This document shows positions 31,572-49,130 of a DNA stretch of 64,000 bases, in pieces. Position 1 is the stretch's first letter, and each line of letters begins with the position of its first letter. A program made the position numbers and the translations under genes. This DNA comes from an uncultured Pseudomonadales bacterium (GTDB taxonomy: Bacteria > Pseudomonadota > Gammaproteobacteria > Pseudomonadales > JAHEIH01), in contig CAZRAM010000010.1 in the NCBI GenBank assembly GCA_964598145.1, positions 3,824 to 67,823 of the forward strand, read 5' to 3'. The notes beneath the pieces were generated by a model. That model saw only the letters and a program-made list of their open reading frames with translations. It was not told the origin of the DNA and did no database searches.

Positions 31572-32443
31572 CTAAAATAACTTTAAAGGCGCCGCTTGTA
31601 AGGCAGAAAACTGTTCGCGAAGTTCCAACACGTGCTCGGCCCAATAGCGTGGGCTGTTGAACCAAGGGAAGTGCATCGGAAAGGCCGGGTCTTCCCAACG
31701 CTTGCCAAGCCATGCGGCGTAGTTGATCAAGCGCATAGTGCGAAGCGTTTCAATCGCGCCTATCTGGGTGACGGGAAAATCATAAAATTCATTGTAACCG
31801 TCGACGATTTCGGCCAATTGGGCGCAACGTTGGCTATAGTCACCCGACAGCAACATCCAAATATCTTGCATCGCTGGGCCGTTGAGACAATCGTCAAAAT
31901 CAACGAAATGTGGCGTTTCATCGCGGTAAAGAACGTTGCCGGGGTGGCAGTCGCCGTGAAGACGTAAAAAGTTCTCGCTTGGTAGTTGGGCAAAACCTTC
32001 TTGCAGCCAAGGTAACAAATCTTTCAGCAGAGATTCATAGGCCGGGCGTAGGTCGGCAGGGACGAAGTGGCGCAATAAAAATTCGCTATTGTCTTCAACC
32101 CAATGCTGCAAGTTGAGTTGTGGCCGAGTTTCAAACAAGTGCTGGCTTCCCACGAGATGAATGCGCGCAATAAATCGCCCCATTTGAAACAGATCGTCGA
32201 GGTTATCGAGTTCCGGGGCATGCCCGCCGCGGCGCTCGAACAAGGCGAAACGAAACCCCTCATGGCTATGCAGGGTTTGGCCATTGATCACCATCGGTGG
32301 AACACAGGGAATATCCGCCGCTTGTAAATCGAGGGTAAATTGATGCTCTTCAAGTATTTGTGCGTCGCTCCAGCGCTCGGGGCGATAGAACTTAGCAATG
32401 ATGGGTGTGCCTTCCTCGATCCCCACTTGATAGACACGATTTT
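31572..32443 (-). pseudogene. srkA: 3' part of the host srkA (yihE/rdoA) Ser/Thr kinase gene, cut off by the island
   Basis: Reads (E)NRVYQVGIEEGTPIIAKFYRP...LHGDCHPGN...DFDDC...AFPMHFPWF; homology stops abruptly at 32443. Confidence 0.92.
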
Positions 32444-32610
32444 GTTTGCACTCTTAATGGTTGTTTTTATGTATATCAGTTTTAAGCCAGTAAATACGAG
32501 GGGTGTAGGACGTTGTCACAAAGCGATGTGTACACATGAAAATTTGACCAAAGTATGTACAAAACTGCTTAATCGTGTACATAAATTTTGTGTCCATATG
32601 CACAAATTTT
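32443..32610. other. Left terminus (att end) of the island
   Basis: 6-7 extra bases, then ACTCTTAATG (imperfect inverted match to ACACCTAACG at the other end), then TGTACA at 32529, 32556, 32576 and TGCACA at 32599. Confidence 0.65.
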
Positions 32611-32619
32611 GGAGTCTCT

Positions 32620-33612
32620 TTAGTAGTTTCCACTACGTCTCGACAGGGGCCTCTCCTGCATGTTGGCAAACTGCTCACGCAACTCAAGAACGTGCTCTGC
32701 CCAATAGCGCTCTGTATTAAACCAAGGAAACGCTGGCGGGAAGGCGGGATCATTCCAACGGCGAGCTATCCAAGCCGCGTAATGCATCATACGCAGGGTA
32801 CGCAGTGGCTCGATAAGCGATAGTTGAGCGTCATCAAACTCATGAAACATTTCATAGCCCTCCAAGAGGACATCAAGCTGATCCATCTGATCGACTCTGT
32901 CACCACTGAGGAGCATCCATAGATCCTGAACGGCTGGGCCCATACGGCAGTCATCAAAATCAACAAACACCGCACGATCATCACGCCAAAGAATGTTGCC
33001 GGGGTGGCAGTCAGCATGTATCCGTATCGGTGTGTAAGGGCACTCATTAAAGCGTTGTTCAATTAACTCAAGGAGATCCCGAGTAAGCGTTTCATAGGCC
33101 TCTCGCAAGGTGCTGGGGATGAAGTCGTGACTGAGCAGGAACTTACGGCTCTCAACTCCATAACTCTCGATATTAATGCTGGGACGATGACTAAAGGGGC
33201 GTTGAGCACCAATGGCGTGAAGCCGACCTAGTGAACGTCCGAGCACTTCAATTGTGTCAAGGTTGTCCAGTTCCGGGGCGTGCCCCCCAAACCGCTCAAA
33301 CAGAGCAAAGGTAAACTCACCATCTTGGTGGGCTGTCTCTCCTGTTGATATTGCCAGCGGAGCCACCAGTGGCCATTCTGACGCTGCTAATTCCGCGCAA
33401 AACGCATGCTCTTCTGCTATCTGTGCAGGAGACCACCGAGACGGCCTGTAGAATTTTGAAATGATCGGTGACGCGTCTTCGATGCCGAGCTGAAAAACCC
33501 GATTTTCAAATGAGTTCAGAGCCGCTAGCCTTCCATCACACCGATAACCAATAGCATCGACAGCATCAAGAATTCTTTCGGGCGTTAAAGCGCTGTAGGG
33601 ATGCTCTGACAT
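32620..33612 (-). CDS. srkA: Island-borne full-length SrkA-family Ser/Thr kinase
   Basis: MSEHPYSALTP...LNSFENRVFQ...KFYRP...HADCHPGN...DFDDC...DPAFPPAFPWF; intact and clearly divergent from the host copy. Confidence 0.92.
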   Translation of the reverse strand: MSEHPYSALTPERILDAVDAIGYRCDGRLAALNSFENRVFQLGIEDASPIISKFYRPSRWSPAQIAEEHAFCAELAASEWPLVAPLAISTGETAHQDGEFTFALFERFGGHAPELDNLDTIEVLGRSLGRLHAIGAQRPFSHRPSINIESYGVESRKFLLSHDFIPSTLREAYETLTRDLLELIEQRFNECPYTPIRIHADCHPGNILWRDDRAVFVDFDDCRMGPAVQDLWMLLSGDRVDQMDQLDVLLEGYEMFHEFDDAQLSLIEPLRTLRMMHYAAWIARRWNDPAFPPAFPWFNTERYWAEHVLELREQFANMQERPLSRRSGNY

Positions 33613-33892
33613 CGTGACTCTCTGCATGCTGTATTCAGTAACAGCTATGCTACGAGATCTCGTTGCGAATACCTACTTTGAATTGAGCCTATCTGCAGAT
33701 CCTGACTAGCTCACTTTGGCCGTAAACGACCCAAACCGGACCTAAGTACTCTCTCGAGATTGAGTTGCAGCTCAGTAAAAACGCATTGTTTCACTGATTC
33801 AAATCACCCAAAAGCAGACCTTTGATCTCGTTCGCCAGCAAGGGGTGAAATGCTCATCAATACTTCTTCGTGATACTTACGAGGATAAAATA

Positions 33893-47461: not shown

Positions 47462-48939
47462 TAGTTAAAATCCTTTAGACGGCTGTTGATGCGGTCATGG
47501 TGATAAGCGATGGCCTCTTTTACAGACTCGTTCTCCTCATCGAATTTGAGGTAGGCTTGCGTTGTCTCGAAATTCGAGTGACCCATGCGCGCTTTGAGTT
47601 CGTGACGCACGTCCTTCACGCCCGCCGTATCCGCATCCCTTACGAAGTTCATTCCGTATGTGGCACGGAAATCATGGAATCTAAACGCGTTAAAGTCAGG
47701 ATGATCGCGGCGGATATCACGGATCAGACGACCTAGGTAGTTCCGTACCGCATTGCCCTCCTGAACAGTGAAAGTCACACGGTCTTTGGCAGTTATACGC
47801 TGGCTGTACTTGCTGTCCTGACGATCAGATTGCTCCTTTAGGCTCGTATAAAAAGGCGACCCGTTCCTGGCGAGAAATAAATAGTTGTCGCGTGAGTCGC
47901 CGTAGAAGCTGAGGGATCTGCGCTCCTGATGCTCTTCTGACTCCATGTAATCACGTAGCATATCGCGTAACTGGATAGGCACATGCAGGCGGTATTTCTT
48001 CTGATTCTTAGTATCGACGCCTGTGCCCTCGCCGATATTGAGTAGTACCTCGCCGTTACGAGAGCGCTGCTCCATCAAACTGTCAATGTCACGCATGCGC
48101 AGTGTGCATACCGTCTGTATACGCGCACCTGTGTAGAGCGCAACAAGACACATCAACTGAAAGACTCGATTATCCGATTTCGCCAGATACTCCAAAATGA
48201 GCGTCTGATCCTCTTCGCTCAATGGTCTTAAATTACCGCCGTCTTTGAGGGTGCCGATTTGATCACGTCTGGAAACACGAAAGGCAAAGTTCGTTGTCTC
48301 TACCGCTTTCATGAACTGAACGCCCGAAGAATTCACAACCGGAATACCGACTAGTTTGCCTTCATAAGGCGGGTTTTCTAGGGCTGTTTCCGCCACTAAT
48401 TCATAAAGAGAAAGGCCGCGATAGAAACCGACCACCGCTTGCATTCGTGCTTTTGCAACACCTACTGAGATTGGAGAGTCCTGCCCCATGCGCAACAATT
48501 TTCTGAGGTAGCGGTAGTACGACCAGGTGCAGCGCTGCTCCGCTTCTTTTGGAAGGAACAGTTCATGCATGGCACGACCTTCAGACTGCTGGTGCTCGAT
48601 CCAGCGCAAATACATCGTTAGGTGCTTAGCGATAGACTGAATAGTTGAAACACTCGGCGGCTCAACCTTGGCCATCTCTGTAAATTTGCGTATCAGATAC
48701 AGATTGCCCAGATCCCATGGCTCTCTGTCACCGCGCAGGATAATTGGGAACTTGCGGACGACCCCGTCTTCAATGGGTGACAATTGGATGGAGAGGTCGT
48801 GGTAACGAAACGGCGAGAAGTGACCAACCTGCTTGCTGCCTTCGCTCTCTAGTGAGACCTCGGACGGGACAAACACATCAATGTATGAGAGATGTGCGCT
48901 TGAGTTTAACGCTTCTTTTGATCGCTTGTCTGATCGCAT
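47461..48939 (-). CDS. Tyrosine recombinase (GinA/IntA-like)
   Basis: YTGARIQTV, DTKNQK, FHDFRATYG, RMGH...TTQAY; first gene at the island end. Confidence 0.9.
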   Translation of the reverse strand: MRSDKRSKEALNSSAHLSYIDVFVPSEVSLESEGSKQVGHFSPFRYHDLSIQLSPIEDGVVRKFPIILRGDREPWDLGNLYLIRKFTEMAKVEPPSVSTIQSIAKHLTMYLRWIEHQQSEGRAMHELFLPKEAEQRCTWSYYRYLRKLLRMGQDSPISVGVAKARMQAVVGFYRGLSLYELVAETALENPPYEGKLVGIPVVNSSGVQFMKAVETTNFAFRVSRRDQIGTLKDGGNLRPLSEEDQTLILEYLAKSDNRVFQLMCLVALYTGARIQTVCTLRMRDIDSLMEQRSRNGEVLLNIGEGTGVDTKNQKKYRLHVPIQLRDMLRDYMESEEHQERRSLSFYGDSRDNYLFLARNGSPFYTSLKEQSDRQDSKYSQRITAKDRVTFTVQEGNAVRNYLGRLIRDIRRDHPDFNAFRFHDFRATYGMNFVRDADTAGVKDVRHELKARMGHSNFETTQAYLKFDEENESVKEAIAYHHDRINSRLKDFN

Positions 48940-48949
48940 TGATGTAATA

Positions 48950-49020
48950 GCCCATATGTATTATGTACATATAGACTATCACGTTAGGTGTTCTATTTTT
49001 ATGTGTACACGTTAGGTGTA
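48950..49020. other. Right terminus (att end) of the island
   Basis: Direct repeat CACGTTAGGTGT at 48980 and 49008; TGTACA at 48964 and 49004; ATGTGTACAC shared with the left end (32526). Confidence 0.7.
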
Positions 49021-49130
49021 TCATAGCTATTCAAGGCCAAGATACGCGCATCGCTCCAGAGTCCAGCGGCTTCGACCGCATTGATGACAGTGTCGGGTGT
49101 GAGGTTGGCGTAGGGGTGTTGATTCATCAT
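49021..49130 (-). pseudogene. srkA: 5' part of the host srkA (36 codons)
   Basis: [39 protein letters not shown] overlaps the modC stop (TAATG); reads on into the island as DTPNVYT-stop. Confidence 0.92.

Follow-up and report, generated by a model that had tools for sequence, protein, structure and literature searches.

An integrative element that splits srkA carries a complete srkA of a separate clade

What becomes of a conserved host gene when an integrative element enters its coding sequence? The question is raised by a 64,000-nt stretch of DNA from an uncultured Pseudomonadales bacterium (contig CAZRAM010000010.1 of assembly GCA_964598145.1, positions 3,824 to 67,823), termed the window here, in which the kinase gene srkA is divided by an element that brings with it a full-length srkA of its own. 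We consider it probable that an element of the SE type (strand-biased circularizing integrative elements) broke the host gene, and that the lineage of this element keeps a full-length srkA from a separate clade as a backbone gene, which is the only complete gene for the kinase.

The host gene is split within a conserved motif

A 16,578-bp element, at window positions 32443-49020, cuts host srkA at NSY/ENR (a slash marks the cut), inside the codon that follows Tyr in the conserved motif NSYENR. The 5′ piece has its ATG at 49130, where it overlaps the stop codon of a gene for a modC-like ABC ATPase, enters element DNA after 36 codons (DTPNVYT, then a stop) and terminates seven codons later; its final 6 nt, CTATGA (49026-49021), are the attB core, which is retained at attL. 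The 3′ piece, (E)NRVYQVGIEEG..., runs to the stop at 31572 with no internal stop, is followed by cysE and corresponds to a Pfam APH-family protein that is missing its first ∼36 residues. The first-pass annotation of this DNA had joined the two pieces in frame into a 326-aa kinase. The joined frame stands, but the borders given for it (49130-49021 plus 32443-31572) amount to 982 nt, one too many; with host DNA resuming at 32442, the pieces sum to 110 + 871 = 981 nt, or 326 amino acids and a stop. The GC content is 0.484 in the island compared with 0.541 and 0.545 in the host flanks.

The borders are set by a natural empty site. Four public metagenome runs from four studies were compared as contigs, which drop rare forms. 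A 743-nt contig in run X12 joins position 32442 straight to 49021 and omits exactly 16,578 nt, with 2 mismatches in the 688 nt of 31755-32442 (99.7% identical), a short side of 55 nt and one ambiguous letter at the joint. The uninterrupted gene is therefore a natural one, present in a nearly identical organism. The site is likewise intact in two genomes of the same genus (G001 and G002), where it reads AAC AGC/AGT TAT GAA AAT within srkA open reading frames of 333 and 332 aa that have 82% and 72% identity, respectively, to the window's host 3′ piece. The attB sequence was read from these two genomes and from the X12 joint.

The element carries an intact and divergent srkA

The element-borne srkA is the last gene ahead of the right end and is co-oriented with the host pieces. 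Its product scores 480 bits against NCBIfam NF008738 (equivalog cut-off 194), matches Pfam APH at 6e-34 and E. coli YihE (PDB 1zyl) with an E value of 1.7e-93, and contains the catalytic motifs HADCHPGN and FVDFDD. By cut-off, APH fold family and the HxDxHxxN and DFDD motifs it is thus a member of the SrkA/YihE family. It is identical to the host protein at 155 of 289 positions (54%) of the 3′ piece and at 17 of 35 (49%) of the 5′ piece, in line with the earlier description of an intact, co-oriented and clearly divergent island gene. The Ser of NSYENR had been equated with Ser36 of E. coli YihE, and it does align with chain residue 36 of 1zyl; a literature search on YihE Ser36 found no paper on a role. 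The window's genome is without any further srkA beyond the split host gene and the element copy.

Related elements at the same site retain srkA

A genome scan that used an IntA alignment, one genome per species and two narrow peptide patterns returned seven loci. At four of them (in three Cellvibrio species and a Zhongshania metagenome-assembled genome, G006) a srkA 5′ piece ending ...LNSY lies directly upstream of intA, and whole-genome searches showed that all four have both host pieces, 5′ and 3′, together with a full element-type srkA. The three features share one contig in G033 (5′ piece at 256.8 kb, element srkA at 262.9 kb, 3′ piece at 309.8 kb), which implies an element of ∼53 kb. With the window counted, all five whole genomes found to have an element in srkA, which include three genera besides that of the window, carry the element srkA, and none provides the counterexample that the first-pass annotation had envisaged, a srkA-targeting element lacking the gene. 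The expectation that srkA would be terminal holds for the window and Zhongshania, where it is the last gene before the right end, but not for the three Cellvibrio elements, where it is the fifth gene, 10-12 nt past the stop of the fourth core gene. On the circle both arrangements share one order, namely the ends, four core genes and srkA, with the cargo placed before or after srkA.

Among the 32 loci of a metagenome scan are ten more distinct attL junctions at the same srkA nucleotide (L078-L082, L084/85, L086, L088, L095 and L099). The element srkA is visible in two metagenome contigs, L075 and L099. The element in L099 (1-2853) is decayed; it retains the host 5′ piece and attL, followed by 159 codons of intA, the last part of intB, the fourth core gene and a srkA that is still open. 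In two other contigs the srkA 5′ piece is found ∼1.5 kb upstream of intA (L076, 100-1627; L077, 300-1828), compared with ∼80 nt elsewhere.

The element copies and the host pieces have separate histories. A 48-row tree unites the five element copies with the single srkA genes of two further members of the window's genus (G003 and G004) in one clade (SH-aLRT 100), and in a careful 20-row tree the element-type clade is supported at 100/99. Each host piece keeps to its own lineage: that of the window groups with G001 and G002 (SH-aLRT 100), those of Cellvibrio with a native gene of Cellvibrio-like type (97) and that of Zhongshania with a different native gene (95). A local tandem duplication of host srkA, with the element inserted later, would account for two adjacent and co-oriented copies. 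It is refuted by their 54% identity, by their positions in different, strongly supported clades and by the location of the full copy inside the 16,578 nt that the X12 contig skips, and we give it practically no credence; the grouping of the island copy with the Cellvibrio and Zhongshania element copies also answers the concern of the first-pass annotation on this point. The Ser codon of NSYENR is TCA or TCT in 7/7 element-clade copies and AGC or AGT in 33 of 34 other distinct sites, and is a marker of the clade. The idea that this recoding confers self-immunity was rejected, as the host 5′ piece in L099 has TCG yet was targeted.

The core proteins of the five srkA-targeting elements, when concatenated, form one clade (99/99) apart from a relative that targets an SPFH protein gene, and within this clade they have diverged to ∼58% identity, with path lengths of ∼0.9. 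Among the element srkA copies the ratio of nonsynonymous to synonymous substitution rates (dN/dS) is 0.045-0.061 in the three pairs with unsaturated dS, which points to strong purifying selection. Within Cellvibrio the srkA tree places Cv31 outside Cv32 and Cv33 (100/97), in conflict with the core-protein tree of the same elements (L021, L023 and L024), where L023 falls outside L021 and L024 (96/98); the conflict suggests recombination between Cellvibrio elements.

The cargo has a different fate. Contig L075 contains the window's core (99.7%) and its srkA end (99.9%) but a different 4.5-kb cargo (L075 6302-10784) that encodes a sensor kinase, a LuxR-type protein and a cytochrome b561-like protein. 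At 30.9x in run X7, the window's cargo (35469-42726) is deeper than the core and host flank (8.2x), and contigs break at ∼42.7 kb and at 33.7-33.8 kb, the points where the L075 cargo diverges. The depth step and the coincidence of these breaks lead us to conclude that the cargo is a separately exchangeable module. A 219-aa tyrosine recombinase at its edge might be what moves it.

Proposed substitution of the host gene by the element copy

We infer that the element copy is expressed, that it functionally replaces the broken host gene and that it is kept for that reason. Substitution is suggested because srkA is retained in five of five genomes, has survived complete turnover of the cargo, occurs in two positions as well as in a decayed element, and is under strong purifying selection. 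It is very unlikely that srkA is instead chance cargo, picked up once and persisting by descent with no compensating role. All carriers do belong to one element clade, and the compensating function is a putative one. However, srkA is still kept where the core has diverged to ∼58% identity and all other cargo is different, in either position and in the decayed element, with a dN/dS of about 0.05.

Several points can be held against the proposed part of this srkA as a compensating backbone gene. There is no sigma-70-like promoter at 32300-34000 (0 found compared with 1.9 expected by chance). No element srkA is seen in the visible part of 13 of the 15 metagenome loci of the group; these include L079, L080, L085 and L091, which extend 0.8-5.4 kb past the fourth core gene, and as the far ends lie outside the contigs the 13 neither support nor refute the proposal. 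The genome sample amounts to seven loci only, from two narrow peptide patterns, and, given the shared ancestry of the elements, five of five represents fewer than five independent events. The host may also lose srkA at little cost, and compensation would then be of small importance.

Three related elements lie in genes other than srkA, each at a conserved motif (Table 1). Searches of the three genomes with the N-terminal piece of the respective target revealed no close spare copy, only paralogs of 21-37% identity or no match. Upstream DNA was compared with downstream DNA by tblastx at 38 loci, whose far ends mostly lie beyond the contigs and of which 12 were not evaluable; each of the three Cellvibrio loci gave one match, and the 23 evaluable non-Cellvibrio loci gave none.

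Two congeners have the element-type gene at the native locus

Among 398 genomes sampled from the order, 340 have srkA. Identity to the island srkA of at least 73% is found only in the element copy of G006 and in G003 and G004. Two strong srkA matches occur, among the 340, only in G006 and in the window's own genome (G000), both of which bear the element. In G204, an assembly of 570 contigs, there are two srkA matches at an E value of 8e-46 that were taken for fragments. The four congeners all lack an IntA homologue and a second srkA copy, which disposes of the possibility, allowed for by the first-pass annotation, that element-free relatives also have two copies.

G003 and G004 have their single srkA of the element type, with no IntA homologue, at the native modC-srkA-cysE locus. 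The srkA and cysE genes of G004 are separated by a 684-aa open reading frame on the opposite strand, judged by eye to be S9-type peptidase-like. A single locus of this genus thus has two srkA alleles that are only about 52-54% identical. The flanking DNA of G003 is closest to the window (82-84% identity compared with 77% and 70% for G001), yet its srkA and the host copy of the window share only 54% identity, whereas in G001 and G002 the host-type gene tracks the divergence of the flanks.

It could be argued from these two genomes that in part of the window's genus the element-type gene is the ancestral allele on the chromosome, from which an ancestor of the elements captured it. Its presence at the native locus without an IntA homologue is compatible with this, as is the GC content at third codon positions of the G003 gene (0.58), which fits its own genome, and monophyly of the element copies is not rejected by an approximately unbiased (AU) test (p=0.285). 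We nevertheless hold this origin to be doubtful. G003 and G004 have different nearest neighbours in a 104-row tree, where both sit deep within a radiation of ∼53-65 clusters with named members from Cellvibrio, Marinomonas, Paraperlucidibaca and Halieaceae, and in the 20-row tree G004 pairs with the Zhongshania element copy (98/84) and not with G003; the mismatch between the flanks and srkA of G003 likewise speaks against it. These placements favour transfer from element to chromosome, although AU tests reject neither grouping (p=0.285 and 0.413).

The 5′ end of the G003 gene may retain a trace of such a transfer. The gene resembles the host type over its first 48 nt (39/48) and the element type over the 65 nt that follow (52/65 identical to the Zhongshania copy compared with 33/59 to the window's host piece). 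The apparent breakpoint lies inside the 110-nt 5′ piece, as would be left by a deletion that joined the host 5′ piece to the element srkA, and the counts are small. A broad mosaic structure of the G003 gene was rejected, since the blastn end extensions that had suggested one dissolved in 90-nt sliding windows; just the host-like signal in the 5′ 48 nt survived, and the 3′ end is of the element type through the stop.

Occupied and empty sites in metagenomes

The element is present in all four metagenome runs. In run X4 it has an even depth and is covered by two long contigs, and in run X12 it occurs together with the empty site, with host flanks at ∼6-7x and the core at ∼1-5x. The first-pass annotation had proposed that integration and excision switch which kinase allele is active, and a reversible switch of this kind, in which excision restores host srkA, gains something from X12, where the host gene also occurs without interruption (99.7% identity across 688 nt) alongside the element. 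The 6-bp core is also intact at attL, so that a precise join would restore the frame, and some GInts, the ginABCD islands, yield an empty site (PMC5385486, main text). However, the X12 empty site may belong to a strain that was never occupied, and circularization of SEs is reported to leave no empty site behind (PMC10214605, main text). No circle junction or back-joint was found in the contigs of the four runs, a negative that carries no weight as contigs drop rare forms. We rate the switch as unlikely.

Ends, core genes and cargo of the element

The coordinates of all features are given in Table 1. A second exact CACCTAACGTG is found at 48980-48990, 28 nt inward from the left terminal motif C, and the whole window contains just these two exact copies; TGTACA-type repeats lie near the right end, at 32528-32582. 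Motif C is kept at attL of five genome-borne elements and at 10 further distinct metagenome junctions. When five elements are aligned, motif C is TACCCTTAACGTG-like, motif C′ is CGTTAAGG(G/T)T-like and 6 bp separate C′ from host DNA. Four other elements have the same end geometry, with the attR spacers CTACGA, ATATAA, GTCAGA and ATACAA. Among the attR spacers of five elements (the window, L016 and L032-L034) one alone matches a srkA core; the SE model predicts that the attR spacer is the core of the donor site, so the donors, or the model, may differ.

Four co-oriented core genes start 80 nt inside the left end. In alignments with seven relatives, protein 1 has the invariant residues R273, K311, H422, R425, H454 and Y463 and protein 3 has R365, K397, H521, R524, H548 and Y557, whereas protein 2 has neither an invariant HxxR nor the R..K..HxxR..H..Y set. 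The fold support for protein 3 is weak. The top Foldseek PDB matches of its model (pLDDT 67.6) are Tn1549 Int, Cre and XerH, the best with an E value of 0.01 and none at or below 0.001, and a PDB profile search gave nothing significant. Protein 2 gave nothing in Pfam, NCBIfam or PDB-profile searches, and its model (pLDDT 59) is too poor to use and has no meaningful fold match; its matches on 14 plasmids have only 20-25% identity. The small fourth protein has no family match in Pfam or NCBIfam searches. The permease and adaptor of the resistance-nodulation-division (RND) type in the cargo score far under the curated multidrug cut-offs (412 compared with 1250 bits), and no outer-membrane gene is adjacent.

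Table 1. Features of the split srkA gene, of the element and of related loci. Positions are those of the window unless a locus is named; a slash marks the cut.
Feature	Position	Strand	Remarks
Host srkA 5′ piece	49021..49130	-	36 codons plus GA; joint at 49021 from run X12 contig
Host srkA 3′ piece	31572..32442	-	290 codons, frame still open
Element srkA, intact	32620..33627	-	likely start 33612 (MSEHPY), as in relatives
Left terminal motif C	49008..49020	-	TACACCTAACGTG
Right terminal motif C′	32449..32460	-	CCATTAAGAGTG, imperfect inverted repeat of motif C
6-bp spacer ('footprint')	32443..32448	-	CAAACA; separates C′ from host DNA at attR
intA-like tyrosine recombinase (protein 1)	47461..48939	-	492 aa; Pfam Phage_integrase 3.4e-10
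tfp-like second core protein (protein 2)	45488..47461	-	657 aa; lacks the recombinase catalytic signature
intB-like third core protein (protein 3)	43387..45573	-	open reading frame 728 aa; likely start M30 (45486), 699 aa
srap-like small fourth core protein	42968..43390	-	140 aa; position and size kept in 8 relatives
Variable cargo	33734..42720		from family searches
Small tyrosine recombinase	33845-34507	+	219 aa; cargo edge
ParE toxin	34571-34858	-	cargo
RelB-like (RelB/PaaA2-type) antitoxin	34851-35198	-	cargo, paired with ParE
RND adaptor	35787-36866	+	cargo
RND permease	36871-39909	+	cargo
Insertion sequence (IS) transposase	40005-40973	+	cargo
Protein with no family assignment	41210-41815	+	cargo
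Element-type srkA in G003	L073 9752-10744		native locus
Element-type srkA in G004	L074 5735-6733		native locus
SPFH protein target	L025 ~9900 or L026 ~9900		VKVLRY/
M48 peptidase target	L025 ~9900 or L026 ~9900		GHEIA/
Dicarboxylate/amino-acid symporter target	L027, L096, L097, L103 (four loci), upstream of intA		IQMIVIPL/

Discussion

We propose that the tyrosine recombinases of the element integrate it at the 6-bp core within the E codon of NSYENR. The host gene is left as a 43-codon stub and a 3′ piece that looks unexpressed, and the element srkA is then the sole full copy in the cell. As the orientation of insertion is fixed, the host modABC-srkA transcript would read into intA. A tentative extension of substitution by the element copy, which we regard as possible rather than probable, is replacement of the target: srkA would be irreversibly broken, a foreign gene supplied and the host made dependent on element DNA, after which the recombinases would decay and the foreign kinase would stay, as in G003 and G004. 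The element of L099 would be an intermediate in this decay toward the foreign kinase alone.

Elements that enter conserved genes are usually thought to rebuild the end of the target or to accept the damage, and a complete spare would be a third way, here with a whole element lineage that carries a full spare of its target as backbone. Such a strategy may render the host dependent on the element. It could also provide a route by which a core gene is replaced by a foreign ortholog across families: a protein search with the element-type sequence returned ∼50 clusters at 70% identity or more, with the names Cellvibrio, Marinomonas (two species), Paraperlucidibaca and Halieaceae among them, so that the type spans ∼50 clusters and five or more named genera or families, with two chromosomes in which it occupies the native locus. 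With ∼7.5 kb of backbone, the system is small.

Comparison with known systems

With respect to the SrkA/YihE/RdoA family (PDB 1zyl; NF008738), the host and element genes are both full members by score and motifs, and they differ in that the element copy belongs to a distinct and widely dispersed clade.

Islands in tRNA genes, and SXT in prfC, rebuild the end of the target gene with a short replacement that becomes fused to the host gene. The element described here resembles them in that it enters a conserved gene and appears to neutralise the damage. It differs in that the host gene remains broken and a whole, separate xenolog is supplied. A literature search found no relevant work on yihE or rdoA in connection with islands or integrases, nor on integrative elements with a compensating copy of their target gene.

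By gene order and end structure, the element fits a site-specific integrative element of the SE type. The core of SEs is ordered intA-tfp-intB-srap, that is, a catalytic, a non-catalytic, a catalytic and a small protein (PMC10214605, main text), and here the four co-oriented core genes have the same order, with the catalytic residues in proteins 1 and 3 and none in protein 2. The ends also agree with those described there: attB is split between attL and attR, the terminal inverted repeats are imperfect, and a 6-bp spacer is present; attL retains the attB core, and attR has another 6 bp in its place. Further likenesses to the SEs of that account are gammaproteobacterial, largely aquatic hosts and an element size near the SE median of 15.7 kb. 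The main text of PMC10214605 mentions no SE with a copy of its own target gene, and srkA, yihE and kinase are absent from the main texts of PMC10214605 and PMC5385486, as distinct from their supplementary insertion-site tables.

GInts are similar in having a four-gene recombination operon at one end with the cargo behind it, and in site-specific insertion into genes, and read-through from host promoters is reported for them (PMC5385486, main text). In GInts, however, the first two proteins (ginA and ginB) are integrase-like and the third (ginC) is non-catalytic, followed by ginD (PMC10214605 and PMC5385486), whereas in the window the third protein is catalytic and the second is not. Of the joint label ginABCD/SE in the first-pass annotation, the SE part is therefore retained and the ginABCD part is dropped. 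The GInts of Pseudomonas aeruginosa are described as lying 'at the end of a duplicated' ribonucleotide reductase alpha gene, an arrangement that is mentioned and not analysed in the main text of PMC5385486, and this placement may be a parallel.

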